Counted from the first letter of the stretch, positions 21,615 to 60,158 are shown. The stretch is DNA of 64,000 nucleotides from an uncultured bacterium (GCA_949295325.1 CASFKG010000001.1:391928-455927); one strand, 5' to 3'. Made by a program: numbers and translations. The notes: a model not told the origin generated them from the sequence alone.

Positions 21615-21636
21615 TTCGGGGAAAATTTACCACTTT

Positions 21637-26857: not shown

Positions 26858-27399
26858 ACAAAAGAAAATTCGATGGCATTCTAGTAGTTGAAGGCAAGAC
26901 AGACCGTGAGTTTTTGTCCTCTTTTTTAGAAGGCGAAATCATAACGACAAACGGGTCAGAAGTTCCACGTGAAACAATAGAATACCTGAAAACTTCTTCT
27001 CGTAGCAAACCCATTATCGTGCTAACCGACCCCGATTTCCCGGGATTGAGGATCCGCAAACTCATCGAAAGCGAAATCCCGGGGGCAATCCACGCCCATA
27101 TGGATAGGAGCAAGTGCATCGGCAGACACAAACTCGGGGTGGCGGAATCATCTCAGGAAGCGGTTTTGGAAGCTTTGGACAAGATGCTTCCCGCTCCTGG
27201 AGGAAAGTCTTTTACCGATGTATGTTATTCCGATTTGCTCGCTTTGGGACTAGCCGGATCGCCATCAAGCAAGGATAAACGTATTAAAATAATGGACAAG
27301 ATGGGGTTGGGCTACGGCAACGCCAAGACGATGTTAAGCCGGCTAGCGCATAACCGCATAATGCTGGATAAACTAAAGGAGGCCGCCGATGAACTCTGA
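26854..27399 (+). CDS. rnmV: ribonuclease M5 (Toprim domain)
   Basis: N-terminal Toprim ...ILVVEGKTDREFL.... 181 aa, in the conserved tatD-rnmV-ksgA order. Confidence 0.85.
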   Translation: MNKRKFDGILVVEGKTDREFLSSFLEGEIITTNGSEVPRETIEYLKTSSRSKPIIVLTDPDFPGLRIRKLIESEIPGAIHAHMDRSKCIGRHKLGVAESSQEAVLEALDKMLPAPGGKSFTDVCYSDLLALGLAGSPSSKDKRIKIMDKMGLGYGNAKTMLSRLAHNRIMLDKLKEAADEL

Positions 27400-35596: not shown

Positions 35597-36133
35597 ATGA
35601 AAACGGTAGTCCTTTACAAAAGCCGCACCGGCAATACCCAGAGATACGCCGAAGACATCGCTAGGCGCGTGAACGGCGAAGTCTATCCGTTGAAGAAAGG
35701 CTGGCTTAAAAAGATCGAGGATGCCGACTGCATCGTTTTTGGCGGCTACGTACAGGCCGGAATCATCGCCGGCCTAGACGATTTTTTGAGCGAATTCGAG
35801 CGCTTCAGCGACGTACCGATCCTGATATTCGCGGTAGGAATGGCCTACCCCACGAAGGAAGGCAGGCAGGATCTCATCACCGGGAACCTCTTGGACATGT
35901 ATCATGTGCGCTTCTACCAGGTTCAAGGCGGGTTCGATTTAAACAAACTCGGTTTATTCAACCGCCTGATGATGAAAAGGACCCTTTCGGCGATGGCTGG
36001 AAAGGAAGACGCAACCGCGGCGGAAAGGAGCCTCGGCGATTTGCTTAACCGTCCGCTCGCCGTCTACGACCATGAGAAAATCGACAAGATAGTAAGCGTC
36101 ATCAATACCCTTTCGCTGGAGGCCAAGGCGTGA
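35597..36133 (+). CDS. flavodoxin-like protein
   Basis: MKTVVLYKSRTGNTQRYAEDIA... FMN-binding flavodoxin N-terminus. 178 aa. Confidence 0.75.
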   Translation: MKTVVLYKSRTGNTQRYAEDIARRVNGEVYPLKKGWLKKIEDADCIVFGGYVQAGIIAGLDDFLSEFERFSDVPILIFAVGMAYPTKEGRQDLITGNLLDMYHVRFYQVQGGFDLNKLGLFNRLMMKRTLSAMAGKEDATAAERSLGDLLNRPLAVYDHEKIDKIVSVINTLSLEAKA

Positions 36134-36690
36134 TTCTCGTCGCGGGACTGGGAAATCCCGGAAGGGAGTACGAAGGAACCCGGCACAACATGGGGTACAT
36201 GGCGGTCGATGCCCTTGCCGATGATTTGTCGCTCAGCTTCGACAAAAAGGATTTTAAAGGAATATATTGCCGTTATAGGAATCCTGAGTTAGACGATGAT
36301 GTAATTTTGCTGAAACCAGAAACTTTCATGAATCTATCCGGAGAAAGCGTCCAAGCTTGTGCATCTTTCTTTAAAATTCCATTAGATAAGATTGTTGTCG
36401 TCTATGACGACATGGCTATAAACCCCGGGCATATCCGCCTTAGGAAGGATGGTTCCTCGGGTGGCCACAAAGGCATGGGCGACATCATAAACAAGATGGG
36501 TACCGCCAATATAAAAAGGATTAGAATCGGCATCGGGGAACCGGCGTTCAACCCCGTCGACTTCGTCTTGGGCAAGCCGAAGGGGGACGAGCTTGCCTTA
36601 TGCGAACAGGGCATCGATTTGGCCAAGAAAGCCATCAAGGATTACCTGTTACGTGGTTTCGACCACGCAATGAATGCCTATAATCGGTAA
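36130..36690 (+). CDS. pth: peptidyl-tRNA hydrolase
   Basis: ILVAGLGNPGREYEGTRHNMG... canonical Pth N-terminus. 186 aa. Confidence 0.92.
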   Translation: MILVAGLGNPGREYEGTRHNMGYMAVDALADDLSLSFDKKDFKGIYCRYRNPELDDDVILLKPETFMNLSGESVQACASFFKIPLDKIVVVYDDMAINPGHIRLRKDGSSGGHKGMGDIINKMGTANIKRIRIGIGEPAFNPVDFVLGKPKGDELALCEQGIDLAKKAIKDYLLRGFDHAMNAYNR

Positions 36691-36734: not shown

Positions 36735-39700
36735 TTGACCTCCCCCCTCCATGGCGGCAGGGGGCGTTTCGTCGTGGACGAGACGGCCGGCCTAGCGCCG
36801 CTTCTTGCCGCGGAGTTTAGCAAATACCGCCGTCCTTTCGCCGTGGTTGCCACCACCCTGTATTCAGCCGAAAAACTTTATACTTCGTTGCTCGATTACC
36901 TGAAGGAAGAGGAGGTCGTCTATTTTCCGGCGGATGAACTTCTCAGGGCCGAGGCGATTACCTCCGGAAAAGAATTCCTTGCCCAAAGGCTATATGCCCT
37001 TTCGAGGCTTTTGGATAAATCCCCTAAGGTACTGGTTACCCATCCGGCGGCGCTTCTCCGTTACCAAAGCGACCCCAAGGTATTCGGCGAGTCGGTCGTA
37101 AGGCTGAAGGTCGGGGACCATTACGATATTTCCAAACTCAAGGCCGAGCTCTCGAGCCTTGGCTATACCAGGGTCGATAAAATCGACCAAAGTCTCCAAT
37201 TCGCTTCGAGGGGCGACATCGTCGACTTCTTTTCCGTAAGCGACGAGGCCCCGACGAGAATCGAGTTTTTCGATGACGAAGTGGAATCGATACGCAGTTT
37301 CGACGTGGCAACCCAGGTATCAAAAAACGAGCTAAAGGAAGCCGTGGCGATGCCTGGCTCCGACATGGTACTAAGCGAAGACGAACTGGCCGACTTCGCA
37401 AGGCGCATAACCGAACTAGGCAAGAGGGATTCAGATACCATGCCGGGCGAGATGGCAAGGGAATTCAATGCCAGGATTTCCGATGCCATAAGCGCCTATA
37501 TTGAGAGACGCTACGACCCAAAACTGTACAAATACTTTGGATTTGCGGTGAATAAACCGTGGTCGGTTTTGGATTATTTCTCGCCTGATTTTGTATTTAT
37601 CGCCAACAAAACCCACTTCGAACAATCGGTTTCATCTTTGATTAGCGAAGCCGATAGATATTACGGCGAACTCAGGGAAAGGCTGCTCATACCGGCGGGA
37701 CTGGAACAATACATGAATCCCGCCAAGGCCCTCAAGGACAAGGAAGTCATCTATAGCGAGCGCTTTGCCAAAAGCAGGGACGAGGAAGTAATAGATCTTA
37801 AGCCAATCGTTTCCAACGGCCACGGCCTTGCCGCGATAGCCAACACCATCAAGGCCTACTCCGATCCGGCCTACCGTACCGTTTTGTGCATCAGCCAGCC
37901 TCATGAACGGGAAGTCGTTGCCGGGCTGCTAAAGGAGAACTCATACGAATATAGGGAAATAAAAGGCCTCGATATACCGGAAGGCCCGGGAATATACGTA
38001 AGTTCCTATCCCATTTCCGCTGGATTCGAGTCCCCCGGGCTCAAGCTCGCGGTAATTTCCTCCTATGAATTATTCGGACGGCAAGGCGGCCGAAGGGTCA
38101 ATTCGAGATTTAGGGAAGCCACGGTTTTGAAATCGTACGAAGACCTCCATCCCGGCGACTACGTCGTCCACGAATATAACGGCATCGGACAGTTCCTCGG
38201 GGTTTCCACCTTGGAGACCAACGGGCGCCATCGCGACTACCTGACCATCATCTACGCGGACAACAACAAACTCTATGTCCCCTTGGAACAATTCAGGCTG
38301 GTAAGGAAATATGCCGGACGCGAAGGTGCGGCGCCAAAGCTAAGCCGCCTATATAGCAAGGATTGGGAAAAGCGTAAGGCCAAAATCCAGGAAAAGGTCA
38401 ACGAACTGGCCGAACGCCTGATGGCCCTTTATAGCGAACGGGCCAAAATCGACGGCTTTGCCTTCAAACCAGATAGTCCCAGGCAAGAAAGATTCGAGGC
38501 GGAATTCCCCCACGAACTAACTCCTGACCAGAAGAGGTCGCTCGAAGAGATAAAACACGATATGGAAGCCCCGGAGGTCATGGACCGTCTCCTCTGCGGT
38601 GACGTGGGATTTGGGAAAACCGAAGTGGCTTTCAGGGCCGCTTTCAAGGCACTCGACAACGGGAAACAGGTAGCCTTGCTCTGCCCGACAACCCTGCTCG
38701 CCAGACAACACTACGAAGTGGCGCTGGAGAGGTTTGCCGGCTATTACGGAAAGGAACAGATCGCCCATCTTTCGAGGCTCGTAAAGCCAAACGACCAAAA
38801 AACTATAATTTCAGGTCTAAAAGATGGGAAAGTACGCTTGGTGATAGGTACGCACAGGCTACTTAGCAAAGAAATAGAATTCCAAGACTTAGGGCTTCTC
38901 ATCATTGATGAGGAACAGAGGTTCGGGGTCGAGCAAAAAGAAAAAATAAAGGAACTAAAGAAGAATGTTGACGTCCTAAGTCTCTCCGCTACGCCGATTC
39001 CTAGGACCCTCCAGATGTCCCTGCTTGGAATAAGACCGCTTAGCGAAATCAATACGGCTCCCAGCGAGCGGACCCCGGTCGAAACCTACGTTGCCCCCTA
39101 TAACGAGGATATAGCCGTGGAACTTCTCTCCCGCGAAATCGCTAGGCACGGCCAAGCCTACTACGTTCACAATGTCATCGATTCGATTTACGGGAAGGCC
39201 GCTTCTTTGAATAGGCGCCTTCCGGCGGCTTCTTTCGGCGTGGTCCACGGAAAGATGGACAAATCGGAAACCGAAGACGTCATGAACGACTTTTACGACG
39301 GGAAGATCGACGTGTTGGTCGCCACTTCCATAATCGAAAACGGAATCGATGTGCCCAACGCCAATTTGCTCATAGTCGAGGATGCCGACCACTTCGGATT
39401 GAGCCAGCTTTATCAGATAAAGGGGCGTGTCGGCCGCAGCAACCGCATGGCCTATGCCTACCTTTTCTACCGCCCCGAGAAGAACATGAACGAAGACGCG
39501 GTCAAGCGGCTTCAGGCCATACAGGAATTCTCGGAATTGGGAAGCGGATACAAAATCGCCCAGCGGGACCTGCTCATCCGCGGGGCCGGGGATATCCTCG
39601 GCCCGGAGCAGGCCGGGTTCATCGATTCCATCGGTCTCGATCTCTATCTGAAGATGCTTAACGAAGCCATCGAGGAAAGGAAATCCGGAGTCAAAAAAGA

Positions 39701-40169
39701 AGAGCCAAAGCCCGTCACCGTCTTCGATATCGATGCCTATATCCCGAAGGATTTTGCCTCCGAGGAAGACCGCATCGCCATATATCAGGAGCTCGGCTCC
39801 ATCGATAGTCTCAAGGAAATCCGGAAGTACGTGGCCAAGCTGAAAGACATACACGGCCGGCTGCCGAAAGAAGTGGAACTTCTGGTGGAAAAAAGAAAGG
39901 TGGATATCTTGGCCACGAAGCCGGCTTTCGAGTCGCTCGAAGAAACGAAGGCCTACGTGGATGTCACATTGAGTTCCGCGTTTACTTCCATTTCCGGGAT
40001 AGGCACCGACCTTTTTTCCGCGATGGTCCCCTACCTATCTAACATCCGCATGACCTATATCGACAAAAAACTGAAACTCAGATATACGAAAAGCAGGGCT
40101 TGGCTTAGGGATCTTCAGAACATTCTTAGCATCATAGAAGAACTTTATGAAAGCAAAAAGAATCCGTAA
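36735..40169 (+). CDS. mfd: transcription-repair coupling factor
   Basis: 1144 aa with a UvrB-homology N-terminal region, an RNAP-interaction domain and an SF2 helicase core (GDVGFGKTEVA, DEEQRFG). Lies downstream of pth. Confidence 0.95.
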   Translation: MTSPLHGGRGRFVVDETAGLAPLLAAEFSKYRRPFAVVATTLYSAEKLYTSLLDYLKEEEVVYFPADELLRAEAITSGKEFLAQRLYALSRLLDKSPKVLVTHPAALLRYQSDPKVFGESVVRLKVGDHYDISKLKAELSSLGYTRVDKIDQSLQFASRGDIVDFFSVSDEAPTRIEFFDDEVESIRSFDVATQVSKNELKEAVAMPGSDMVLSEDELADFARRITELGKRDSDTMPGEMAREFNARISDAISAYIERRYDPKLYKYFGFAVNKPWSVLDYFSPDFVFIANKTHFEQSVSSLISEADRYYGELRERLLIPAGLEQYMNPAKALKDKEVIYSERFAKSRDEEVIDLKPIVSNGHGLAAIANTIKAYSDPAYRTVLCISQPHEREVVAGLLKENSYEYREIKGLDIPEGPGIYVSSYPISAGFESPGLKLAVISSYELFGRQGGRRVNSRFREATVLKSYEDLHPGDYVVHEYNGIGQFLGVSTLETNGRHRDYLTIIYADNNKLYVPLEQFRLVRKYAGREGAAPKLSRLYSKDWEKRKAKIQEKVNELAERLMALYSERAKIDGFAFKPDSPRQERFEAEFPHELTPDQKRSLEEIKHDMEAPEVMDRLLCGDVGFGKTEVAFRAAFKALDNGKQVALLCPTTLLARQHYEVALERFAGYYGKEQIAHLSRLVKPNDQKTIISGLKDGKVRLVIGTHRLLSKEIEFQDLGLLIIDEEQRFGVEQKEKIKELKKNVDVLSLSATPIPRTLQMSLLGIRPLSEINTAPSERTPVETYVAPYNEDIAVELLSREIARHGQAYYVHNVIDSIYGKAASLNRRLPAASFGVVHGKMDKSETEDVMNDFYDGKIDVLVATSIIENGIDVPNANLLIVEDADHFGLSQLYQIKGRVGRSNRMAYAYLFYRPEKNMNEDAVKRLQAIQEFSELGSGYKIAQRDLLIRGAGDILGPEQAGFIDSIGLDLYLKMLNEAIEERKSGVKKEEPKPVTVFDIDAYIPKDFASEEDRIAIYQELGSIDSLKEIRKYVAKLKDIHGRLPKEVELLVEKRKVDILATKPAFESLEETKAYVDVTLSSAFTSISGIGTDLFSAMVPYLSNIRMTYIDKKLKLRYTKSRAWLRDLQNILSIIEELYESKKNP

Positions 40170-40321
40170 GGATATGCTTTTTTGACCCTTTTTAACGGCA
40201 TTTGTCTATTTTTGTATGTGTCCAACCAAGCAAAAAACTCCCGAATCCCCTAACGTTTTTTGCCGGTTTGTCTAGAATTTTTCCTTATGGTGCTCAAATG
40301 CATATCGATAAATTTGAATTG

Positions 40322-40343
40322 CATTTGTAAGCCCTTACAAATG
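40322..40343. promoter_or_regulatory. cre-like 22-bp palindrome (CATTTGTAAG-CC-CTTACAAATG), putative CcpA/LacI-family operator
   Basis: Perfect 10-bp inverted arms. The core TGTAAGCCCTTACA matches the cre consensus TGWAANCGNTNWCA except at the central CG. An extra half-site CAAATGCA lies at 40295-40302. Confidence 0.5.
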
Positions 40344-40376
40344 TTTGAGACTTTTAATGAGATAGAGGAATAGATT

Positions 40377-41810
40377 ATGGATAAGAAGACTCCCCTCCCG
40401 CTTCTATTGGCATTGGGTTCCTTGATTTTGGTGGGCTGCACGAATTCAAACCGCGATGACACCGGCACCGAAACCACGAGCGAATCGAGCATCGACCTCG
40501 ATATAAACGACCTTGACTACATCCTTGATAAATACGACGAGGCCGGATATCAGTACTCCTATTCAGGGGAACCGTGCACCATAACGATGACCCACTGGGA
40601 CTCTTCCGGTGCTTCCGTCGAAAGGGCCGTCATCGAAGCAATGCTGCAGGGCTTCGAGGCCAGATATCCTGACATAAAGGTCATATTGGAAATTTTTCCA
40701 AGTTACGAAGAAACATACGGCAACAACCTCGTTGCCAACAAGGTTACCGACGTCTTCCTGGTTCCGGACGGCGCCTTCACTTCCTGGGCTGGATTCAACA
40801 AGATGGTGAACCTCGACCCTTACATAGCTGCCTCCACCTTGGTCACGCCGGAAGACATGTTCCCGAGCGTCATTTCCCGTTATCAGTACAACTCTGCCGA
40901 GCAGAAAGCCGGCTCGGGTGTCCAACTTGCCCTTCCCAAGGACGTCGGTCCTTACGTCATGTTCTATAACAAGGACCACTTCGACGAGATGGGCGTTGAC
41001 TATCCGCCCGATGACCGGATCATGACCATCGACGAAGCCATCGACATGTGGACCGCCCTTACCAAATACGATTCGGACGGCAACACATCGCGTTACGCGT
41101 TGGGCGGCATCGGTCCCGAAGGACTCGTCTGGAGCGCCGGCGGCGACTTCCTCAACGAAACGCGCGACGCCTTCCCGACTTCCGAAAGCGACCTGAACGG
41201 CCTCCGCCGCGGATACCAGTTCCTCCAGGACGCCTATTTGACGACGAAGATCATGCCTCCCAACGAGTGGACCGCCGGCACCGACGCCGAAACGCTTTTC
41301 TCCATGCAGAGGATTTCCACGCTCGTCGCCGGGCGCTGGAACGTCACCTCCTTCCGTAGCCTTGGCTTCGATTGGGACGTCGCCTACGTTCCGGCTTTCG
41401 AAGTAGATCCTGTCAAAAACATGTATAGCGGTTCCGTCGGCTATGCCGTTTTCAACGGAAGCCAGCACATCGAAGCGGCTTGGAAACTGGTCGAGTACAT
41501 CGCTTCGCCGGAAGGACAGGAAATTCTTTCGGCGACCGGTTTCCAAATCCCCTGCTACTACGAACTGGCCAAGTCCGAAGACGTCAGGGCCCGGGAAGCC
41601 GACCTGTTTGGTTACGAGAACTACGATGTCTTCGTCGAGAGTGCACAGAACCAGTCCTACGGCCTCTGGCAGTACCGTTCAAATATTCGTTGGAAGACCT
41701 TGGGCTACGACACCGTTTCGGAGCGTCTCTTCAGTACCGATCCTTCGACCCGTTATACCGTCGACGAATTCCTGAATGTCGCCAGGACTGAGGTTAACAA
41801 ATACCTATAA
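40377..41810 (+). CDS. ABC sugar transporter substrate-binding lipoprotein (family-1 SBP)
   Basis: Lipobox LILVGCTNS and a 477-aa extracellular solute-binding fold, followed by two MalFG-type permeases. Confidence 0.85.
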   Translation: MDKKTPLPLLLALGSLILVGCTNSNRDDTGTETTSESSIDLDINDLDYILDKYDEAGYQYSYSGEPCTITMTHWDSSGASVERAVIEAMLQGFEARYPDIKVILEIFPSYEETYGNNLVANKVTDVFLVPDGAFTSWAGFNKMVNLDPYIAASTLVTPEDMFPSVISRYQYNSAEQKAGSGVQLALPKDVGPYVMFYNKDHFDEMGVDYPPDDRIMTIDEAIDMWTALTKYDSDGNTSRYALGGIGPEGLVWSAGGDFLNETRDAFPTSESDLNGLRRGYQFLQDAYLTTKIMPPNEWTAGTDAETLFSMQRISTLVAGRWNVTSFRSLGFDWDVAYVPAFEVDPVKNMYSGSVGYAVFNGSQHIEAAWKLVEYIASPEGQEILSATGFQIPCYYELAKSEDVRAREADLFGYENYDVFVESAQNQSYGLWQYRSNIRWKTLGYDTVSERLFSTDPSTRYTVDEFLNVARTEVNKYL

Positions 41811-41829
41811 GCGCTAATGCGGTGAAACC

Positions 41830-42738
41830 ATGGTCAAAGCGAAAATAAGCCGCAAAACTAAGAAGAAAATCGATGCCTTGGAGGGCATGGCCTTTGCCGC
41901 GCCCCTTGTTATAGGTTTGCTTCTGTTTCTGGCATTTCCTTTGGTTTATGCGGTGATAATTTCCTTCACCGACTATACCTTTGCCACCGCGAACTCGTTT
42001 AATTTCATAGGATTCCAGAACTACATCGATGCCTTCAACGACCACTACTTCGTGAGGTCGCTGCTGAATGCCCTGATCAACTGCATAGGCGTTCCCATCG
42101 GAATGGCTCTTGCCTTGGTGCTTTCCGTCTTCCTCACGAAGATAAAGTGCTTCTCCAGCTTCTTCCGCTCGGTCCTTTATATCCCTACCGTCTGCGGCGC
42201 TGTCGCCATTACCTTCATTTGGAGTTGGATGTACCAGCCTCTTTACGGACTTATCGCCCAGCTCGGTAATGTTCTGGGTTGGGGGACCATCAATTTCCTG
42301 GGCGAAGACCTCTTTCTTCCTTCCATGATAGCGATGGGCATCTGGTCGGGGCTTGGAACGTCGATATTGCTGCTTTACGCGGCTCTCAAAAACGTACCCA
42401 AAGCCTTGTACGAAGCCGCCCAGGTCGACGGTGCCAACGCCGTTCAGCAGTTCTTCCACATAACGCTGCCGGCGGTCAGTCCCATCACTTTCTACATACT
42501 ACTCACCGGCATATCCGGTTCCTTCCAGGACTTCACCCGCTTCCAGGTCATGCGGGGCGACCAGATAACCGATTGGTCGATAATGCCGGTCTGGTACATA
42601 TACAAATACACTACCAACGCCTTCAACTACGAAGCCGGTTATGCCTGCGCGATGGGCATAATACTCGGATTGATCCTCCTCGCTTTTTCAGCCGTCCAGT
42701 TCGTGGCCAGCCGCTATTGGGTACATTACGATGAGTAA
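41830..42738 (+). CDS. ABC sugar transporter permease (MalF/UgpA-type)
   Basis: 6-TM protein with an EAA-loop region (...LYEAAQVDGAN...). Confidence 0.85.
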   Translation: MVKAKISRKTKKKIDALEGMAFAAPLVIGLLLFLAFPLVYAVIISFTDYTFATANSFNFIGFQNYIDAFNDHYFVRSLLNALINCIGVPIGMALALVLSVFLTKIKCFSSFFRSVLYIPTVCGAVAITFIWSWMYQPLYGLIAQLGNVLGWGTINFLGEDLFLPSMIAMGIWSGLGTSILLLYAALKNVPKALYEAAQVDGANAVQQFFHITLPAVSPITFYILLTGISGSFQDFTRFQVMRGDQITDWSIMPVWYIYKYTTNAFNYEAGYACAMGIILGLILLAFSAVQFVASRYWVHYDE

Positions 42739-43624
42739 AAAAGAGTTGAACGGGCAGGCGACGGCCATATCGCGGAGCACGGCCAAGAAATTGGCCAAGG
42801 CCCGGCATTTTCTAAGCCAGACCGGGATGTATCTCGTTTTGATAATATTCGCCCTCGTTATACTGATTCCTTTCCTGTTCGCCGTATCGACTTCCTTCAC
42901 GACCCCGGAAAACATTTTCGATTTCAAGTGGATACCTTCGCCTATAGATATCGGGAACTACGACAAACTGTTTACCGAAAACAACGTCTGGCAGGCGTTC
43001 CTCAACACCTTCCTCTACACCGTTCCGACCACTATAGTCGGTACCTTCTGCAGCGCCCTTTGCGCCTATAGCTGCGCCCGCATGAAATGGCCGGGGAGAA
43101 GGGTTGTCTACTACCTTATTCTGGCCACCATGGTCATTCCCGGCGTGATTACCCTCATGCCCAGTTACGTCCTTTTTGTCAATTTCTACGGCTGGTATGG
43201 CACCGCGCTTCCTATCGTCATCCCGGGAATGTTCGGATCGGCTGGGGCCATGTTCTTCCTCCACCAGTACTTCAAGACCCTTCCCAAGGAACTGGAAGAA
43301 GCGGCCGAAATCGACGGCATGGGACGTCTTAGGATCTTCCTGAAAATCATATTGCCGCTTTCGGTTCCGGCCGTTTTGACCCAGTTCATCTTGGCCTTCA
43401 ACGGGGCCTACAACGACTATATGACCCCGTTGCTTTACGTCGGAACCAATCCCGACATGTTTACCATCCAGCTATTGGTAAGCGGCCTTTCGACCGCCCA
43501 TAACCGCCAATACACCCTCCTTATGGCCGGGGCCGTTACCGCCCTGGTCCCGACGCTGATTCTCTATGTGGCCTGCCAACGCTTCTTCGTGGACGGCATC
43601 GCCATGACCGGTTTGAAGGAGTAA
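42731..43624 (+). CDS. ABC sugar transporter permease (MalG/UgpE-type)
   Basis: 6-TM protein with EAA motif (...LEEAAEIDGMGRLRIF...). Overlaps the upstream permease by 8 nt. Confidence 0.85.
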   Translation: MSKKELNGQATAISRSTAKKLAKARHFLSQTGMYLVLIIFALVILIPFLFAVSTSFTTPENIFDFKWIPSPIDIGNYDKLFTENNVWQAFLNTFLYTVPTTIVGTFCSALCAYSCARMKWPGRRVVYYLILATMVIPGVITLMPSYVLFVNFYGWYGTALPIVIPGMFGSAGAMFFLHQYFKTLPKELEEAAEIDGMGRLRIFLKIILPLSVPAVLTQFILAFNGAYNDYMTPLLYVGTNPDMFTIQLLVSGLSTAHNRQYTLLMAGAVTALVPTLILYVACQRFFVDGIAMTGLKE

Positions 43625-43626
43625 CC

Positions 43627-45999
43627 ATGAACAAGAAAGCACTGTATTTCGCCCTCCCCTTGGCCCTCGTTCTTGCTTCCTGCGGCCCTTCCTCGGGCGG
43701 GCCTTCTTCAGACAGCTCTTTGCAAAGCAGCCAAACCGACTACGATTTGCCGGACGCTCCGGCCGGATCGGTAACCGAGGGGAAAATCACCGTCGGCAAC
43801 GCTTCGATTTCTTTTGTTTTGAACAATTCGGGGAGGTATTACGTCGATTTTGGCTATTCCGGCAATACGGTCTATCGGAGTGTTGCCCCGGCGATAATCA
43901 ACACGAGAAGCGAGTCTTCCGGCATACTGGCAACCTACGACGAGAACACCTACGAGAGTACTTACGGGCGTCTCGAGGAAACCTCTTTCGGGATATTGGC
44001 AACCGCGAACATCGAAACCGGCGAAGGAAGCGTCTTCGAGGTAGCGGATGCCTATTACATACCGCTTGGATCTTCTTCTTTCGCCATCGAAAGGACCGTG
44101 ACGGTCAAGCAGAAGAAAGGCGAGGACGAAGGTTTCCAAAGCGAGATGTTGATTACCAATGTCGAAGGGAGCAGCAATTACGAAGACTTTACCTATTTCA
44201 TTCCGGCGATCATATATAAAGACACTGCGGAAATGAGGTCTGGTTCGATTGCCAGCAACCTCAACCTGACAGGGAAGGTCATGGTGAAGGAAACCCGTAC
44301 CGGGCTTCCCCTTTCCTTTATCCGCCATGACGGCGGGCCGTCCATCGGCCTATACCACTACGAACCGGAAATTAGCGTGGGCGACGAGATAGGCGGGGGC
44401 TTCAACGGCGAAGTAAGCGAAATGCTCGAATACGGATCGGTAGGGTTCCAAATCACCCCGCTTGTTGGCGTTGATCTCTGCTACCCCGCCACCGAAGGAC
44501 CCAATACCTATGATTCCGGCCAAGGCTGGGCCAAGCGTTTCCATCCGGTCGAAGAAGGATTCTCCCACAACTACACGATGGGTATCGTTATCCGCAGCGA
44601 CGGGGATTACAACACCGCGATGGCGGAAACGTATAAGGAAGCCTTCAGGGCGCAGAGCCACGAGTATCCGAAGGTAGACATGGAACAGATTTACGAAGAC
44701 AACCTTTATCTTTTCGGGCAGGAGTATCGGACATTCGGTGACAACGACGTCTACGGCGGCCTTCCTTGGTCGCTGACCCTGCCGGATGCCTCGGCCGACC
44801 AGGGTTACGCTTCCCAGTCGGGCTTCGTCGGGCAGCAGGCCCCGGCTGCTTATCAAATGCTTCGTTATGGTAGAAGCAACGGCGATAGCGGCTATATCGA
44901 AATGGGCACCAGGGCCCTCGATTTCTGGACTTCCCGAACCATCATGGGCAACTATTTCCCAATCATCTGGTGGGATCCCGGAAACGGATCTGCAGGCGGG
45001 ACTAGAAGGGACTACCCGACTTTCTTGCGCTGCATGGTCGATGCCGCCGAAGGCATTTTGGACGGGTATCTGATGGAAAAAGGCCTCGGCGTGGAACACG
45101 CCCAATGGCTTGAAGCGGTGACCAAAATCGCCGACAACCTGGTTGCCGTTCAAAACGAAAACGGTTCATTCTACCGGGCTTATAACCTTAACGGCACCGT
45201 CTGCACCGATACTTCCAACGCGACCTATCAGGGCACTAGCGAGCTGAATACTCCGATTGCCGTCCGCTTCTTGGCCAAGATGTTCGAGATGACCAGCGAT
45301 GCCAAGTACAAGGAGGCTGCCCTTTCCGCGGCCGATTACAGCTACGACGAACTTTATCTCGGACGCGGAAAATATGTCGGCGGTACCCCCGATAATCCCA
45401 ATACCGTCGACAAGGAAGCCGCGGTCTATGCGATGTATTGCTTCGAAGCCGCCCATTCCCTGTCCGGCGACGACAAATATCTGGCCGCCGCCGAACATGC
45501 AGCGGTCTGTGCGATGAGCTGGGTATATACCTACGACTTCGCGGTCCCAAGCCAACTGTCAAATCAGGAAATAAACACCTTCGAGGACGGCGGAGTCATC
45601 GGCTTTTCCTTCATTGCCACCGGGCATAGCTCCGCTGACAACTACGCCGCCTATATCTTCTTTGCCCTGTACCGTCTTTACCTCGAATCCGGCGACGACT
45701 TCTATTTCGACGCCGCGCTTCTCATCGAAAACGCCAGCAAATTGAGCAACGACTACGACGGACGCATGGGCTTCAAATACCGGGCCATGGGTCCCGAAGC
45801 CACCACCGTGGCCGACTTCAACTTCGCCTCCGTTGGAACCTGGCTTCCCTGGAGCGGTATCGCCAACATCGAGCCGATCATCCACTTCAAGACCTGCTTT
45901 GGAACCTATTCCATCGAAGATCTCACGATGGATCTGGGCGAACAGAAAGCCGCTCTCGAAGCCTATGGCATGGGCGGCAAACAAATTGGAAACGTTTAG
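43627..45999 (+). CDS. lipoprotein of unknown function, possible (alpha/alpha)6-toroid glycoside-hydrolase-like protein
   Basis: Lipobox LVLASCGPSS, 790 aa, with a Trp/Tyr-rich helical-hairpin C-terminal half. Starts 3 nt after the permease stop. Confidence 0.6.
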   Translation: MNKKALYFALPLALVLASCGPSSGGPSSDSSLQSSQTDYDLPDAPAGSVTEGKITVGNASISFVLNNSGRYYVDFGYSGNTVYRSVAPAIINTRSESSGILATYDENTYESTYGRLEETSFGILATANIETGEGSVFEVADAYYIPLGSSSFAIERTVTVKQKKGEDEGFQSEMLITNVEGSSNYEDFTYFIPAIIYKDTAEMRSGSIASNLNLTGKVMVKETRTGLPLSFIRHDGGPSIGLYHYEPEISVGDEIGGGFNGEVSEMLEYGSVGFQITPLVGVDLCYPATEGPNTYDSGQGWAKRFHPVEEGFSHNYTMGIVIRSDGDYNTAMAETYKEAFRAQSHEYPKVDMEQIYEDNLYLFGQEYRTFGDNDVYGGLPWSLTLPDASADQGYASQSGFVGQQAPAAYQMLRYGRSNGDSGYIEMGTRALDFWTSRTIMGNYFPIIWWDPGNGSAGGTRRDYPTFLRCMVDAAEGILDGYLMEKGLGVEHAQWLEAVTKIADNLVAVQNENGSFYRAYNLNGTVCTDTSNATYQGTSELNTPIAVRFLAKMFEMTSDAKYKEAALSAADYSYDELYLGRGKYVGGTPDNPNTVDKEAAVYAMYCFEAAHSLSGDDKYLAAAEHAAVCAMSWVYTYDFAVPSQLSNQEINTFEDGGVIGFSFIATGHSSADNYAAYIFFALYRLYLESGDDFYFDAALLIENASKLSNDYDGRMGFKYRAMGPEATTVADFNFASVGTWLPWSGIANIEPIIHFKTCFGTYSIEDLTMDLGEQKAALEAYGMGGKQIGNV

Positions 46000-46016
46000 T
46001 AAAGGAGAGGAGAAGT

Positions 46017-48866
46017 ATGAACACTTTACTAGCCATGGTGCTGGCCCTTTCCTCCTTCGGCGGCCTTGCATCGGGAGACAGGCTTGGTGCCTTTGTCCCC
46101 TCTGACTGGTCGCTGTCGGGAGGCGGGGCGGTAAGTGCCTACTACGACATCGGCGACACCATAACCGCCAAGAGCACCCAAACAACGTTAAGGGGCAATT
46201 TCCTCATCAATGAATCCGAAACGCATCTTGGCGATTATACCGTTTCTATAACCGGAAGCGCCGAAGAGTCCTGGCCGGTAAGCAAATCAGTCCAGATCGG
46301 CATAGTCCCATGGTACTTGGATAGTAACAACTACATTCTCGTCTATATGGAATGGAGTCCGACTGAAAGACCAACCGGCATGCGCGTAGTCGAATTCACC
46401 GGGCGCATCGACGGACAGAACCCGGTCGTCTACAAGGACGGCGGATTCGTCCAATCGGAATGGAACGATGCCTGGATGGACGGGGCCAACGAACCATATG
46501 CCATCGATCCGTCGAGCGACTGGACGTTCAGCGTCAAAAAGGAAAGGAGCGCGGCCGGCGATACCGACGAGTTCACGGCCTATATAAACGGCAACAAAGT
46601 CGGATTCTATGGATTCCGTGACGTTCCCAAGTATTCGGCCAAGCCTGCCAAATCAGGTATCTACTGCTATAACGACAACGTCACCATAACCGATTATTCG
46701 GTGACGCCGGTCGCCGATGATAGTTTGTTTCACGATATCGGGGGAGGCTATGTCGGCAAGGCCGCTAGCGGCGACTGGGACGTAAGCGGGAACACCCTTT
46801 CTATCGATGCCTCTTCCAGCGTCGATCCCATATCCTCTACCATTGCCATTACGGAAAATACCTACGAAGGCAATTTCCGCTTAAAGGGAACGTTTGCTTC
46901 TTCCTCCCTCGTCAATAACGGCGGCATCGGCTTGGTGCCTTGGTACCAAGACGAAACCAACTATTTGACTGCTTATGTCGGTATGGTTGGAGGAACCAAA
47001 TCGCTCATGGTCGAAGGAATGGTCACCGCATATTCGGGCGGTGGCATGAGCCAAACCCCTATTAACGACACATTACCGTTGGATTCGGTGGAAAACGTCG
47101 GAGATATTTCGCTTATTGCCGATAAACAAGGCAGCAGAATTTCCCTATATCTCGAAGGTGGCGAAGATAACAAGCTCGAAGTAAGCAATCCCGCTTTCGC
47201 CACCGCTTCTTATATCGGGACTGCGGTCAGTGCCTGTAACGTAAGCATCGACTTCGAAAGCGAAGCCCTCGTCTACAACTCCTTCGACTGGTATGACCTA
47301 ACTCTCGGAGGAAACAAGGTAAGCGTCAAATCCGCGACCGATGCCGAAGGCCTCTTCGCGTACGACGAAGGCACCTACACAGTTTCCGATGAAGCGGTCG
47401 TTTCAGGCGATTTGACCAAACAGGCCGCCTTGTCCCTAGCCACTTCCTATGTCGGCGAAATATCCGTTTCCGCCGATTTCGCTCCTTTGGCGGAAGGCCA
47501 GGAATACGGTCTCTATCCGTTTTTGGTCGACGAAGACAACTACGTGCGCATCGGTCTTAAATCCGATGCATTTACCGTTTACTTGGCAAATAACGGAACC
47601 GAAACCCAGAGAGGTTATGTCCTGCCCGCCAATTTCGATTCCGCGGCTTCTCACAATATTTCCGCCGAACTCGCCAGCGGTACGCTCAATGTTACGGTAG
47701 ATGGCGCTTCGGTAGTCGAGAACCTGCCTGTCGATGGTTACGATTTCTCCGACTCCCTTATGATCGGTTTCTTCTTTGCCGGCAAGGGCGGCAGCGTTTC
47801 CAATCTTAGCTATAGCGGTTTCTATCCTAATTCCGCGAAGAACGTTGGAGCCTGGACCGTCTACGGTCCCCGGCCGGACACCTGGACATTCGACGAAGAA
47901 AACAACACCATCACCGGAAAATACGATGGAGGTACCGTTTGGCAGGCTACCAACGCACTAATGAGCAACGAAAAAGCCGATTTCTGGTGCGCTTCCACCA
48001 TCAATGTGTCCGCGGTGACCGCTTCCGAGCACAAAGTCGGACTCGTCCCCTATTATCTCGATTCCAACAACTACGTCTTCGTCTGGTTCAGCCGCTGGGC
48101 CGGTTCTACCGCCAACACCAATGTCACCGTGCGTATCAACGGCCAGATCCTCCCGCCGGAATGGGGAGAAAGGGAAATCGGAATCCAATTCGAAGGGACC
48201 GACAACAAACTCGAAGCCCATATCGAAGGGGACACCGTTTCCGTTTATGTTTCCGGGGCCTTCGCACCGGTATATACCGGCAATTACCCCGGATTGTCGG
48301 AGAGAACGCTGTCCGGAGCGAAGAGCGGCCTTAACATCTCCAACGTTTCGGCCACCTTCAAGGACACCGTCCTCGGTGCCGACGATAGGCCATATGCCTT
48401 CAACGAGAAGCCGTCCATCAACGAAATTGGCACCCGCGTCACCGCCGGCGTGGTAGGCGAAAGGATTGCCCTGCCGATCTACACCGCGACCAACAGCAAC
48501 AACGATCCGCTGACGGCGGTTGTCAACGTTACGGATCCTTCAGGCGAAGCCGTGGTTCTCGAAAGGAACGGATTTGTCCCCGAAACGGCCGGTATCTACC
48601 ACGTCGAAGTTACCTGCACCGACGACTGGGGCAATTCCGCCGACCCCGTTTCCTACGACATAACGGTAACAGAAGCCCAAACCGGCGGAGACACTTCTTC
48701 AGAGCCGGACACCGGCGGCAACACCGGCGGAGGGACAACCGATCCCGAAGGCAACGGGCTAGGTCTAATGCTCGGCATTGTGTTCGGTTGCCTAGGCGGC
48801 GCAGCCGTTATCGGCCTGGCTATCTTCCTCTTCATACGTTATCGCAACAAAAAGACAACGGAATAA
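46017..48866 (+). CDS. large surface protein with four tandem copies of an uncharacterised beta-rich module, Gly/Thr linker and C-terminal TM anchor
   Basis: Signal peptide and four roughly 200-aa repeats, each with the motif G-[IL]-[VY]-P-[WFY]-[YL]-x-D-x-[DN]-N-Y. A low-complexity GGDTSSEPDTGGNTGGGTTDPEGNG stalk follows. C-terminal hydrophobic helix plus RYRNKKTTE. Confidence 0.7.
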   Translation: MNTLLAMVLALSSFGGLASGDRLGAFVPSDWSLSGGGAVSAYYDIGDTITAKSTQTTLRGNFLINESETHLGDYTVSITGSAEESWPVSKSVQIGIVPWYLDSNNYILVYMEWSPTERPTGMRVVEFTGRIDGQNPVVYKDGGFVQSEWNDAWMDGANEPYAIDPSSDWTFSVKKERSAAGDTDEFTAYINGNKVGFYGFRDVPKYSAKPAKSGIYCYNDNVTITDYSVTPVADDSLFHDIGGGYVGKAASGDWDVSGNTLSIDASSSVDPISSTIAITENTYEGNFRLKGTFASSSLVNNGGIGLVPWYQDETNYLTAYVGMVGGTKSLMVEGMVTAYSGGGMSQTPINDTLPLDSVENVGDISLIADKQGSRISLYLEGGEDNKLEVSNPAFATASYIGTAVSACNVSIDFESEALVYNSFDWYDLTLGGNKVSVKSATDAEGLFAYDEGTYTVSDEAVVSGDLTKQAALSLATSYVGEISVSADFAPLAEGQEYGLYPFLVDEDNYVRIGLKSDAFTVYLANNGTETQRGYVLPANFDSAASHNISAELASGTLNVTVDGASVVENLPVDGYDFSDSLMIGFFFAGKGGSVSNLSYSGFYPNSAKNVGAWTVYGPRPDTWTFDEENNTITGKYDGGTVWQATNALMSNEKADFWCASTINVSAVTASEHKVGLVPYYLDSNNYVFVWFSRWAGSTANTNVTVRINGQILPPEWGEREIGIQFEGTDNKLEAHIEGDTVSVYVSGAFAPVYTGNYPGLSERTLSGAKSGLNISNVSATFKDTVLGADDRPYAFNEKPSINEIGTRVTAGVVGERIALPIYTATNSNNDPLTAVVNVTDPSGEAVVLERNGFVPETAGIYHVEVTCTDDWGNSADPVSYDITVTEAQTGGDTSSEPDTGGNTGGGTTDPEGNGLGLMLGIVFGCLGGAAVIGLAIFLFIRYRNKKTTE

Positions 48867-48918: not shown

Positions 48919-49042
48919 GTTTCATGGTGCCAAAATGCATAAAGGGCAAGTCTCGCGATATTAAGCAGCATAGTGCCAATTCATACAATGAAACTGCGAA
49001 GAACATCGTTTTGCTGGAACCAGCAGTTGAATTTTGAATCGA

Positions 49043-49056
49043 TGTAAGCGCTTACA
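49043..49056. promoter_or_regulatory. catabolite responsive element (cre) TGTAAGCGCTTACA
   Basis: Perfect 14-bp palindrome matching cre consensus TGWAANCGNTNWCA. It sits 17 bp upstream of the ATG at 49073 and abuts the RBS AGGAGA. Confidence 0.55.
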
Positions 49057-49072
49057 AGAAAGGAGACCGATC

Positions 49073-50989
49073 ATGAACGGAAAATGGCTCAGAATCGCCG
49101 GTGTCGCATTGCTCGCCGCTGGCGTTGTTACGGCCGGAACCGTCATTGCGACTTTGCCCGACACACTTCTGATGGCCGGAGCCAATGACGGCTACACCAT
49201 CAATCTCGACAGCGAAAACGCCCCGGAGCTCGCCGAAGGGACCGGTAGCATAACCGCTGTTAGCAATACTGGCTACGGCTTAGTTGGAATCGTCTATGAC
49301 GGGGCCACATCCAATGAAGGCAACCACGTTGCTCTAAACGAAGGAGGGAGCATCAGGAACTCCGACCAGATTACCGCCATTACCGATATTCAAATAAATT
49401 ACACCGGAACTCTCACGTTGGGCTTCGGTCGGACTGCTGAGGTTTTTGTTCCCGTCGCCGGTATCCCTAGCGGCGTTCCGACCGAAGTGGTTGGAACCCC
49501 TCTGTATTTTGATATTTCCGCCGGCGCCGGCGGGGCCGTTATCGAAAGCATAACCGTTACGTATTCGTGCGATCCGTCCCCGGTTTACGCGGATTTGGAC
49601 GTAACCGTTCGCCTTCCCGGCTATCTTGAGGGCGGCGAGGCCGTGACATTGAAACAAGGCGATTCCTCCGCGTCCATGAGTGTTACAACCGAAGACATAT
49701 TGACATACGAGGCGAACGTCAAAAATGTCGATCCCTATAGTGAGTTCACGGTCGTCGTCGGCGAAGCCACTAGCAACCCATTCCGTCTCGATTCCCTAAA
49801 TGGCCTGAGGGCCACGAAGGTTCTGTCTTCGGAAATCGACTACGACGGGTTCGTGAAAGGATTCGAGATGACGGACTACAAAGGTTCCGTTACCTATTCG
49901 CAGAGCGCGCCAGACGCCATAAAAGTCACGAGCAACGAATCCAACGGAAACTTCCTAACCAAGGACGCCGAACTTGGCAATAAGTATTCCGTAGAAGCCC
50001 ACATTCAAGGCACCGTTGATGCGTTGCCGGTTGCCAATAACATCAATGCCGGTCTCCTTGCCTATTACCAAGACGCCGACAATTGGCTGGCATTCTATGC
50101 CGAATGGAAGGTTGCTACCGAAACCAACAGGCCAAACGAATTGGCTTCTATCCAACCGGCCGTTTCAACAAACGGAGTTGTCAGTTATCCTTCTCCGATC
50201 TGGTGCGACGGAATTAGTGCCACCCCTCATGACGGGCTTGACCTCAAGATCGATGTCGAGATATCCACTGCCGGCGTCGTTGCCACCGCCACGGCATTGG
50301 TCGGCGGACAGACCAAGACCGGATCCGCGACCATGTCCGGAACCTTCGCGGAAGGCAGCAAAGTCGGTGTCTACTGTTTCGGCGATACCGTAGATTTCAC
50401 TTCCTTCTCCTACGAAAAATTGGAGATAACGACCGATTGGCAGGTCCTTGCCCCTGGCAGCAATCCTACTACATTCAAAGAGGACGGCGGTTCACTGGTC
50501 GTCAACAACGATGGAAACTGGAAAGCCGGTTTTGTCGGCAAGCCCGTTACCGTTGGTGCATCCTACAGCATCTCGTCTCATATTGCGGGAACTACTACCG
50601 GAAATGTCGAAAGCGAGTTGATGCTCGGATTCCTTGCCTACTATACCGATCCGGACAACTTCATCATCGCGTATGTCCAGTACTCACCAACAGACAGGCC
50701 CCACGAAGCACGGGAAGTCCAGATTACCGGCCATATCGGCGGGAACGATATCGGATGGTGCGATATCTGGACCGACGGGAACGGCGTTCATCCGGCAGAC
50801 GGCTTCGACCTGAAAGTCGACGTCGAAATCGGAGGCGGGAACGCCACCGTCTCGGCGACCATGACCACCGGGGCCGGCTATGTGAAAACCGGTAGTCGGA
50901 CGGTCGAAAACGTGGAAAATCTTCCTACCCATCTCGGCGTTTATTGCCAAAACGAGACGGCGACCTATACCGGCCTCGTCATCGAATAA
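49073..50989 (+). CDS. surface protein paralog with N-terminal signal-anchor and two or more copies of the same beta-rich repeat module
   Basis: Start chosen at MNGKWLRIAGVALLAAGVV (RBS AGGAGA 6 nt upstream). Repeats carry GLLAYYQDADNW and GFLAYYTDPDNF motifs like those of the 46017..48866 protein. Confidence 0.7.
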   Translation: MNGKWLRIAGVALLAAGVVTAGTVIATLPDTLLMAGANDGYTINLDSENAPELAEGTGSITAVSNTGYGLVGIVYDGATSNEGNHVALNEGGSIRNSDQITAITDIQINYTGTLTLGFGRTAEVFVPVAGIPSGVPTEVVGTPLYFDISAGAGGAVIESITVTYSCDPSPVYADLDVTVRLPGYLEGGEAVTLKQGDSSASMSVTTEDILTYEANVKNVDPYSEFTVVVGEATSNPFRLDSLNGLRATKVLSSEIDYDGFVKGFEMTDYKGSVTYSQSAPDAIKVTSNESNGNFLTKDAELGNKYSVEAHIQGTVDALPVANNINAGLLAYYQDADNWLAFYAEWKVATETNRPNELASIQPAVSTNGVVSYPSPIWCDGISATPHDGLDLKIDVEISTAGVVATATALVGGQTKTGSATMSGTFAEGSKVGVYCFGDTVDFTSFSYEKLEITTDWQVLAPGSNPTTFKEDGGSLVVNNDGNWKAGFVGKPVTVGASYSISSHIAGTTTGNVESELMLGFLAYYTDPDNFIIAYVQYSPTDRPHEAREVQITGHIGGNDIGWCDIWTDGNGVHPADGFDLKVDVEIGGGNATVSATMTTGAGYVKTGSRTVENVENLPTHLGVYCQNETATYTGLVIE

Positions 50990-51007: not shown

Positions 51008-51037
51008 AGCGGGTTCCTTCAACGGGACCCGCTTTTT
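51008..51037 (+). terminator. Rho-independent terminator
   Basis: AGCGGGT-tccttcaacggg-ACCCGCT followed by TTTTTG. Overlaps the last codons of the convergent ABC ATPase gene. Confidence 0.5.
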
Positions 51038-51714
51038 GTTGTACGGTCCGCCACCAAGTTAAGCTTCCCGCCTTCCAAACGGTAATGCCTGTCGAAGTGG
51101 CGCGACTCGTTTACGTCGTGTCCGACGTATATCAAGGTCGTGTCGCTGTTTTTTACCAGACGGAACATTTCTTTTAAAAGGGCGTCTTTTGTTCTGACGT
51201 CCACGCCGGAAAATGGCTCGTCGGCCAGGAAGAGCGACGGTTTCCTTACCAGCGCCCGGTAAAGGGCCACGGTTTCCTTTTGGCCGAGGCTCAGCTCTTT
51301 AGGCTTGAAATTGAGCAGTTTTGCCACCGGCGAGCCTTTGATTATTTCCTTGATCAGTTTGTCTTTCTCCATTCTTTTCAGGCCGTAGCCGTCCAAAGCC
51401 GCATAGAGATTCCCGTAGACGGTCAGAAACGGATATAGGAATGCTTCCTGGAAGCAAAAGGCGACGTCGCGGCTCGAAGCCTTGATGTCCAGTATTTCCT
51501 CTCCCCTGAATTTCAGGGAACCTTCATCGGGGTCCAATAACCCGGCAAGGATTTTCAGCAATGTGGTTTTGCCCTCCCCGCTTTGGCCGCTAAGGAAGAT
51601 GGTATCCCCTTGATCGAATTCGAAGCAGAGATTTTCGAACACTTTGGTTACCGGCTCTTTCCTCGTTTTCCCTTTGTAGGAAAAATCCAATCCCCGGAGC
51701 ACGTAATCACTCAT
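51019..51714 (-). CDS. ABC transporter ATP-binding protein with degenerate signature motif
   Basis: Walker A GQSGEGKTT, Walker B LFLADEP, and signature LSLGQKE in place of LSGGQ. 231 aa. Confidence 0.8.
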   Translation of the reverse strand: MSDYVLRGLDFSYKGKTRKEPVTKVFENLCFEFDQGDTIFLSGQSGEGKTTLLKILAGLLDPDEGSLKFRGEEILDIKASSRDVAFCFQEAFLYPFLTVYGNLYAALDGYGLKRMEKDKLIKEIIKGSPVAKLLNFKPKELSLGQKETVALYRALVRKPSLFLADEPFSGVDVRTKDALLKEMFRLVKNSDTTLIYVGHDVNESRHFDRHYRLEGGKLNLVADRTTKSGSR

Positions 51715-52570
51715 TTTGGCCCTCCCTATAAAGCCCTTTCCGGTATTGGGAAGGAAAACCGTTTTTGTTTACGGATTCGTCGGCCATGTAGGCAAACAAA
51801 AGAAAGTTCGAAATTCCGGCAAGGGAGTTGAAGAAGGCATAGAGGAAATCCAGAACGAGCACCGCGATTATGCAGATGCCGGAAGGAATGGCGCCCGCGA
51901 ACAAATAGAAAAGGGCAAACGGCCATATGCCCATCAGGGCGGCCAGAAGGGAATAAGGCAGGTATTTGAATAGAAGCCCGGCCGCGGCCTTGAAATATCC
52001 GGGCACCGTATTTTTGTAGATGTCGCGCAGGAATATCATGTATGTAAGGGAAACGAACAAAAGGCCAAGCAAAACAAAATAGACGATCAGCAGGCCGTAA
52101 TGGAGGAACACCGCTTCCCCGGACGATACCAAGGAAATGAGAAAATAGAGTCCGTAGGCAGCCGTTCCGTAAGCCAGGCCCGTTGCCAGATTGGGCTTCC
52201 AGTTGTCCTTTAGTCCTTCGAGAAAATCGTCTTTCAGGATGTAACCCTCGTTGTAGCTGTAGCGGCGATATACCCTCGCCGCACCGGTTGCGGCAAGCGA
52301 ATAGAGGACGGAAAAGGCAATCAAGGACAAATAGGAAAGGCGCCTGAAGGCTACAAGTTCAAGCCATTGTTTTTCGGCATCTTCGGCGTAGGCGATGATG
52401 ATCGAGCCTTCGGCAATCAGTCCGTAAAGGCCGTAGGCCATAACGGGCAGAAGAAAAAGGAAAACGATTAGGGAGAGTTTGAAAAGTACTAGCTTTTGGT
52501 ATTTCAGGGCATTCAAAAGGAGCCCCCTTCTCGTAAGCGGCAGTTCGAGATCGCGGCTAACTATTTTCAC
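51707..52570 (-). CDS. polytopic membrane protein (putative permease partner of the ABC ATPase)
   Basis: 287 aa with about 6 hydrophobic helices. Overlaps both the downstream ATPase start and the upstream GH2 stop. Confidence 0.6.
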   Translation of the reverse strand: MKIVSRDLELPLTRRGLLLNALKYQKLVLFKLSLIVFLFLLPVMAYGLYGLIAEGSIIIAYAEDAEKQWLELVAFRRLSYLSLIAFSVLYSLAATGAARVYRRYSYNEGYILKDDFLEGLKDNWKPNLATGLAYGTAAYGLYFLISLVSSGEAVFLHYGLLIVYFVLLGLLFVSLTYMIFLRDIYKNTVPGYFKAAAGLLFKYLPYSLLAALMGIWPFALFYLFAGAIPSGICIIAVLVLDFLYAFFNSLAGISNFLLFAYMADESVNKNGFPSQYRKGLYREGQNE

Positions 52571-60117: not shown

Positions 60118-60158
60118 AAAGAGCCCCGGTTCACTAAAGTGAAAGCGTTTTCAGAGTC

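Follow-up and report, generated by a model that had tools for sequence, protein, structure and literature searches.

The window analysed here is a stretch of 64,000 nucleotides from an uncultured bacterium and covers the chromosomal origin region of a Bacillota-type genome. The dnaA, dnaN, recF, gyrB and gyrA genes lie on its minus strand; several DnaA boxes (TTATCCACA, TGTGGATAA) are found at 21615-21775 upstream of dnaA, and yidC and mnmE are on the plus strand of the same replication origin region. The host was placed in the Bacillota because of its pth-mfd, tilS-ftsH and dnaA-dnaN-recF-gyrBA genes and because of the names of related records, whose sources are uncultured Bacilli MAGs from herbivore and bird guts. 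One homologue of the AraC-family protein described below bears the name Candidatus Enteromonas, order RFN20. The Bacillota are the group in which CcpA and its cre sites operate. Elsewhere in the window, a small SRP RNA is encoded at 10541-10638 on the minus strand (Rfam RF00169, 54 bits) and overlaps the 5' end of the longest tadA-like open reading frame (ORF; 10085-10633), and the tadA-like deaminase probably starts further downstream than this longest ORF.

The region of interest follows pth (36130-36690) and mfd (36735-40169). After mfd comes an intergenic region that contains a palindrome, and then a plus-strand operon (40377-48866), assigned from Pfam matches and synteny, for a solute-binding lipoprotein (SBP; 40377-41810), two permeases (41830-43624), a conserved protein of 790 aa (43627-45999) and a conserved protein of 949 aa (46017-48866). 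Beyond a terminator, a plus-strand gene at 49073-50989 encodes a secreted 638-aa protein with a signal peptide. The minus-strand operon at 51019-54344 encodes a GH2 glycosidase, a MusI-like membrane protein (a sub-threshold NCBIfam match, in the 51019-52570 region of the minus strand) and a short ABC ATPase that is MalK/UgpC-like and is without the C-terminal regulatory domain. The MusI-like protein and the ATPase probably supply the ATPase that is missing from the SBP-permease operon. Divergent to the GH2 operon, an AraC-family regulator is encoded at 54410-55282 on the plus strand, with a cupin AraC_binding domain and two HTH motifs by Pfam; its best NCBIfam match is AraC, below the cut-off. 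The family of this protein is narrow, with 37 proteins at E <= 1e-30. Searches of Pfam and NCBIfam assigned none of the 790-, 949- and 638-aa proteins to a family with significance, and PDB sequences gave no match; the only functional hint is a pectate-lyase match below threshold in the protein of 790 aa. Genes for GH28, a CE2/GDSL esterase and GH51 occur near related loci.

The window was compared with orthologous SBP loci of 83% to 56% protein identity (L001, L002, L030, L032, L033, L034, L035/36 and L040), with L003, where the SBP lies inside a longer operon, and with four loci collected via the AraC protein (L037-L040). From ppdk to the secreted protein, L001 and L002 show full synteny with the window, and more distant genomes keep the same operon gene order. 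The order GH2-MusI-like-ATPase is conserved in L033, L034, L037, L039 and L040; in L038 the genes for the MusI-like protein and the ATPase follow araC instead. The comparison yielded nine SBP promoters, including that of the window, and a wider set of 22 promoters from 12 genomes that carry the activator box described below. Because the SBP promoters are orthologous to one another, counts made across them do not represent independent events.

The mfd-SBP intergenic region contains the inverted repeat CATTTGTAAG-CC-CTTACAAATG at 40322-40343, with 10-nt arms that are 100% complementary and 2 nt apart. The preliminary description of this DNA had called it a perfect 22-bp palindrome; the arms are indeed perfectly complementary, but because the CC centre is non-symmetric the whole is not strictly perfect. 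The window has two perfect inverted repeats whose arms reach 10 nt or more with a spacer of 0-4 nt; 30 first-order Markov simulations of the window gave 0.53 such repeats on average and never more than 4. The palindrome is unremarkable by this count, and the case for it therefore rests on context and conservation. The only other perfect repeat with 10-nt arms, TTTTCCTTAG-A-CTAAGGAAAA at 28167-28187, lies at the end of an ORF (27389-28192) just before a GHMP-kinase gene (28242).

Within the palindrome, the 14-bp sequence TGTAAGCCCTTACA at 40326-40339 is the conserved unit and the predicted repressor operator. The cre consensus TGWAANCGNTNWCA is bound by CcpA with HPr-Ser-P in the Bacillota, and sites that have TGTAAA/TTTACA arms but differ in their centre (crevar) have also been reported for CcpA (PMC5263246). 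The core in the window was correctly recognised from the outset as one position off this consensus: it matches at 13 of 14 positions, and the mismatch is the central G (CC for CG). A cre-like 14-mer stands at the same place in all nine orthologous SBP promoters, starting about 19-26 nt after the activator box, and reads TGTAAGCCCTTACA in the window, TGAAAGGGGTTTCA in L001, TGTAAGGGCTTACA in L002, TGTAACCCCTTTCA in L030, TGTAACCCCTTACA in L032, AGTAAGCGCTCACT in L033, TGTAAGCGGTTTTT in L034, TGTATGCGCTTTCA in L035 and TGTAACCGATTTCA in L040. The start of the L003 operon also has one (AGAAAGCGCTTTTA). What is kept across the SBP orthologues is the pair of arms TGWAA/TTWCA; the 22-bp extension is peculiar to the window, and in the orthologues the flanks outside the 14-mer are asymmetric and diverged. 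The centre of the SBP site is CC or GG in the five closest species (the window, L001, L002, L030 and L032) and CG in four more distant ones. The central CpG is normally the most conserved step of cre. Compensatory covariation at cre positions 3 and 12 was considered, since the pair is T:A in the window and A:T in L001. T/T occurs in several orthologues, however, and we therefore claim only W at these two positions and no covariation.

A second conserved element, which we call the P box, lies upstream of the palindrome. In the window it occurs as TGGTGCTCAAATGCATA at 40288-40304 on the plus strand before the SBP operon, as TGGTGCCAAAATGCATA at 48925-48941 on the plus strand before the gene for the secreted 638-aa protein, and as TGGTGTCAACTTGCATA at 54394-54410 on the minus strand before the GH2 operon, where there is no cre. 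The P-box consensus, TGGTGY-N4-TTGCATA, is 17 nt long and asymmetric; its two conserved blocks, TGGTG and WTGCATA, are separated by roughly one turn of the helix. The slightly longer ATGGTGCNNAAATGCATA is found without mismatch at 40287-40304 and 48924-48941 and with three mismatches at 54394-54411 on the minus strand. By chance, 0.22 matches to the motif would be expected in the window; the actual count is three, a number that no shuffle out of 100 attained. Each of the three is upstream of a transcription unit and points towards it; likewise, all 22 P boxes in the 12 genomes are oriented as their downstream gene, and 18 or more of the 22 keep the conserved base at each of positions 1-5 and 11-17. 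L001 retains the second P box of the window (at 18568) and has TAGAAT at an equal offset from it. This element changes the meaning of CAAATGCA (40295-40302), which the preliminary description had taken for an upstream operator half-site: it is instead positions 8-15 of the separate, asymmetric P box, a box that also precedes the 49073 gene and the GH2 operon.

The protein that binds the P box is most likely the cupin-AraC protein encoded at 54410-55282, to which the sites are linked by neighbourhood only. Wherever an araC orthologue is carried (7 of 7 genomes), it is divergent to GH2 and a P box abuts its start codon. The longest AraC ORF in the window begins at 54374, and alignments to orthologues begin at residue 14-15. 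The ATG at 54410 is the probable start by this comparison and overlaps the 5' end of the opposite-strand P box, which would allow autoregulation. In L035 and L036 a P box is present and no cupin-AraC gene was found within 10 kb.

The P box also served to locate the core promoter. When promoters were anchored on the box, likeness to TATAAT rose to a single sharp peak at x = 43 nt after the box end. A2 and T6 fall exactly at x = 43 in 11 of the first 15 promoters and within ±1 in all 15, and a -10-like hexamer stands at 43±1 nt in 22 of 22 promoters. Because of this fixed hexamer the P box is placed at about -71 to -55, and therefore it is an upstream site and not the promoter itself. By the same comparison the SBP promoter of the window has a weak predicted -10, GAGACT (40347-40352, plus strand); the orthologues have GAAACT, TAGACT, TATACT, TATGAT or TATAAT at this position. 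The 49073 gene has TACAAT (48984-48989, plus strand) and the GH2 operon has TAGAAT (54351-54346, minus strand). The predicted -35 of the SBP promoter, TTGTAA (40325-40330, plus strand), is part of the left arm of the palindrome, with a 16-nt spacer to GAGACT. Across SBP promoters the -35 is TTGTAA, TTGAAA or TTGTAT, 16-18 nt upstream of the conserved -10, and it falls on the left cre arm, 20-25 nt past the P box. SBP transcription would accordingly be placed by position to start near 40359, giving a leader of 18 nt before the ATG at 40377, with a ribosome-binding site AGAGGAA at 40364-40370.

This assignment bears on an earlier suggestion that the palindrome overlaps a promoter made of TTGAAT and TACAAA. 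The overlap itself holds, as the palindrome covers the -35 defined by comparison, but those particular hexamers do not. Neither is conserved in L001 or L002, and a TTGAAT-N16/17-TACAAA or ACAAAT promoter fails a sigma-70 scan and was rejected. TTGAAT lies at 40314-40319, one base off the 40315-40320 first given, and TACAAA lies at 40336-40341. At the GH2 promoter, the -10 TAGAAT ends 1 nt before the annotated ATG (54344). Transcription is predicted to begin near 54339, and 54335 is the position of the next ATG; the mRNA of GH2 is therefore probably leaderless or nearly so. TAGAAT is also found 8-9 nt before the ATG of a tetR gene (start 35548) and of a flavodoxin gene (start 35597).

The fixed downstream -10 likewise bears on whether the P box could itself be a -24/-12 promoter of the sigma-54 type, with the palindrome just downstream of the start. 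There is a resemblance between TGGTGC-N4-TTGCATA and TGGCAC-N5-TTGCA, and the P box directly follows terminators at 48925 and at L001 18568. In sigma-54 promoters the GG-GC spacing of 10 nt is invariant. In all boxes that keep both elements, however, GG and GC are 9 nt apart, and a -24/-12 promoter would have no need of the sigma-70-type -10 that stands at a constant 43±1 nt, nor of the TTG-type -35 that precedes it. Furthermore, no gene for an enhancer-binding protein was seen in any locus. We rejected the sigma-54 reading on the wrong spacing (GG-N9-GC) and the fixed downstream -10, and consider it very improbable.

A putative weak proximal half-site of the P box can be drawn at 40309-40325 on the plus strand, 21 nt downstream of the P box. 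As a whole, 40309-40325 scores poorly against the P profile, and only its TTGCATT (40319-40325), which contains the TGCAT remarked on earlier, is conserved. The second box reads TTGCATT, GTGCATT, TAGCATT or TTGTATT in eight of nine SBP promoters. In the full set, the +21 same-strand offset is among the three best secondary P matches in 7 of 22 promoters, with low scores. TTGCATT is conserved at the proximal position at SBP promoters only, and most GH2 promoters show no evident half-site there.

The preliminary description had paired CAAATGCA with TGCATTTG (40320-40327) as inverted copies of one arm, creating overlapping dyads that could be tandem or alternative operators for CcpA or a LacI-family repressor. 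The two 8-mers are exact complements in the window, but the inverted relation is not kept in the orthologues: these have TTGCATA or TTGTATA followed, 21 bp on, by TTGCATT, that is, a direct repeat. The complementarity arises because the species of the window has the self-complementary ATGCAT, and TGCATTTG is the end of the proximal box joined to the first bases of the cre. Overlapping or tandem operators are thus unsupported, because the orthologues carry a direct repeat and because the P box stands alone at the GH2 promoters, all seven of which have the 17-nt box and are free of the palindrome. We regard such dyads as highly improbable operators for one LacI- or CcpA-type protein.

That the palindrome works as an RNA hairpin (a terminator, attenuator or stabiliser) and not as a DNA site is the least probable of the readings that we weighed. 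The sequence does fold, at -8.9 kcal/mol with z = -2.7, and 3 of 200 shuffles fold at least as well. The palindrome lies upstream of the predicted transcription start, however; no T-run follows it, and a scan finds no terminator-like site. The orthologues keep the 14-bp core only, which would leave A/U-rich stems of 5-6 bp (for example TGAAA-GGGG-TTTCA), and the palindrome matches a known protein-site consensus. Rfam searches returned only the SRP RNA at the gathering score over the whole window, and only noise at E <= 10 over 40150-40400. An RNA element was rejected on the lack of an Rfam match, the modest hairpin and the position upstream of the predicted start.

Additional cre-like sites occur in the window. 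A perfect cre, TGTAAGCGCTTACA, with 14 of 14 positions matched, lies at 49043-49056, at about +48 to +61 of the predicted transcript of the 49073 gene and 5 nt before its ribosome-binding site. L001 has TGGAAGCGCTTACA at the same offset, x = 102 after the P box. Promoters of the secreted-protein type thus carry their cre-like site in another place than SBP promoters do, near +48 in the window and L001, and in L039 over the -35 and spacer. The cre-like sites are found in or just downstream of catabolic-gene promoters, the core over the -35 and spacer of the SBP promoter and the other at about +48 to +61. No cre-like site was found at GH2 promoters (seven of seven). Between the promoter and the cre of the 49073 gene, a terminator-like hairpin (TTGCTGGAACCAGCAG then TTGAATTTTG, 49011-49026) lies within the predicted 5' leader and may be an attenuator.

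A second perfect cre, TGAAAGCGTTTTCA, also with 14 of 14 matches, is at 60140-60153 before a MarR-family gene and an ABC exporter. It is 5 nt upstream of a good promoter (TTGACG, 16-nt spacer, TACAAT). As a catabolite-control target and in its position this site is unusual, and it could be a MarR operator instead. Cre-like sites before genes that have no P box were found here, at L039 15322 and at L039 18480 (CC centre), the L039 sites preceding genes that adjoin GH123 and LysR genes. The DNA surveyed from the lineage amounts to about 252 kb and covers a minor portion of each genome. It has 29 cre-like sites with no more than one mismatch, and 12 of these are in non-coding DNA, which makes up 5% of the sequence (p = 6e-9); the non-coding fraction comes from a crude ORF mask, and several "coding" sites, such as that at 49043, are really upstream of true starts. 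As with cre, then, many such sites stand before unrelated operons.

Together these results support the view, already put forward in the preliminary description, that the palindrome serves a sugar ABC operon promoter in the manner of a cre or LacI-family operator: it is kept in orthologues, recurs before a neighbouring gene and overlaps the promoter. Most likely, the palindrome is a true cre-type operator that has been conserved and that covers the -35 of a promoter dependent on an activator, where protein binding is predicted from sequence comparison. Like known cre sites, the element here is a 14-bp pseudo-palindrome with TGTAA/TTACA arms, which matches the consensus at 13 of 14 positions at 40326-40339 and at all 14 at 49043-49056; it lies over the -35 and spacer or in a downstream roadblock position, before carbohydrate-uptake genes of a Bacillota genome; and several sites per genome lie in promoter regions. 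In contrast to cre, the centre at the SBP promoter is CC or GG in five related species.

No LacI or Peripla_BP domain was found in the 40 window ORFs scanned, and no LacI-family gene was found within ±10 kb in about ten related loci (gene lists including L033-L040). The 64 kb of the window likewise showed no ccpA, ptsH or hprK. A global regulator of the CcpA type is the most economical reader of the palindrome because the loci hold no LacI gene and because the motif is not confined to the regulon. The non-CpG centre calls for caution over the CcpA reading. With moderate confidence, we favour a model that combines activation by the AraC-type protein with repression by a LacI-family, probably CcpA-like, global regulator.

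It is possible, if unlikely, that the palindrome belongs to a dedicated LacI-family repressor that is encoded elsewhere in the genome and released by its substrate. LacI-family operators are palindromes of 14-20 bp that resemble cre, the CC/GG centre in five species is unusual for CcpA sites, and the cre-like sites are specific to promoters of the SBP and secreted-638-aa types, with none at seven GH2 promoters. Dedicated repressors are usually encoded adjacent to their own operon, and a local LacI repressor was rejected, as neither the window nor ±10 kb of the related loci has such a gene. Furthermore, the same motif precedes the unrelated genes at window 60140, L039 15322 and L039 18480, and the AraC gene is already a candidate for the dedicated regulator.

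A more speculative alternative, to which we give little credence, is that the cre-reading repressor of this lineage tolerates or even prefers a non-CpG centre. This repressor would be an altered CcpA, or a second global regulator of the LacI type with its own regulon, wired to the AraC regulon. The pattern TGWAA-SSSS-TTWCA with a CC or GG centre is kept in the SBP promoters of five species, and TGAAAGCCCTTACA is found at an unrelated L039 promoter. In that case the regulator would be tied to a lineage-specific AraC regulon whose main products (790, 949 and 638 aa) have no recognisable family.

Under the favoured model of AraC-type activation and global repression, the mfd-SBP intergenic region would be an activator-dependent promoter of the sigma-70 type under dual control. 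An activator of the AraC/XylS type would bind the P box at 40288-40304, and the weaker copy 21 nt downstream may assist its binding. The cupin-AraC protein would in this way switch on the SBP-permease operon, the gene for the 638-aa protein and the GH2-MusI-like-ATPase operon together. The cre-like core, by its position in the comparison, would cover the -35 TTGTAA and the first half of the spacer, such that binding of a LacI-family repressor dimer would keep RNA polymerase out; a global repressor of the CcpA type would thereby impose carbon catabolite repression. At the 49073 gene, the cre (about +48 to +61) would form a roadblock, and the GH2 promoters would have the activator box without a cre.

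At araI1-araI2, AraC binds tandem asymmetric half-sites of two boxes each, with the proximal copy abutting the -35. Sites for XylS at Pm are similarly direct repeats of two boxes (PMC5481539). The P box has the features of sites for this family, being an asymmetric 17-nt box of two blocks whose orientation and distance to the -10 of the core promoter are both fixed. Additionally, a putative weaker copy 21 bp downstream would reach the -35, the core promoter elements are weak, and a divergent AraC-family gene with a cupin sensor adjoins the site, with a box at its start. The arrangement differs from AraC/XylS in that many promoters have a weak proximal half-site or none, and in its host, which is an uncultured Bacilli lineage. 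To our knowledge, TGGTGY-N4-TTGCATA matches no described site of the AraC family.

AraC-type regulators of the MsmR/RafR kind control streptococcal CUT1 sugar ABC operons that are also under CcpA control. As in those systems, the AraC gene here diverges from a glycosidase gene, with an operon encoding an SBP and two permeases beside it, and we propose the same pairing of a local activator with global catabolite repression. The present locus differs in that the glycosidase is a GH2 enzyme, in the separate ATPase and MusI-like protein of the glycosidase operon, and in the large uncharacterised proteins of the transporter operon. A literature search combining MsmR or RafR with cre returned nothing directly usable; PMC9722767 mentions the MsmR family.

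Pairing a local activator of the AraC type with a cre-type repressor that covers the -35 is a well-known arrangement, in the Bacillota and beyond. The mechanism is in this sense conventional, and the locus is a new example of a known design in a little-known lineage. Its value is as a testable regulatory map of a carbohydrate-uptake locus of gut Bacilli, comprising an activator box, a repressor site and three units under common control. Of modest interest are the CC/GG centre, an AraC-type box that is newly defined and, in the regulon, three large proteins that are uncharacterised. Because the 790-, 949- and 638-aa proteins belong to what appears to be a sugar-induced, glucose-repressible regulon, they are candidates for new carbohydrate-active enzymes.

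A divergent intergenic region of L034 (9708-9964) contains two P boxes, one per direction, and two copies of TGTAAGCGGTTTT. One of these copies lies upstream of the leftward P box, outside its promoter.
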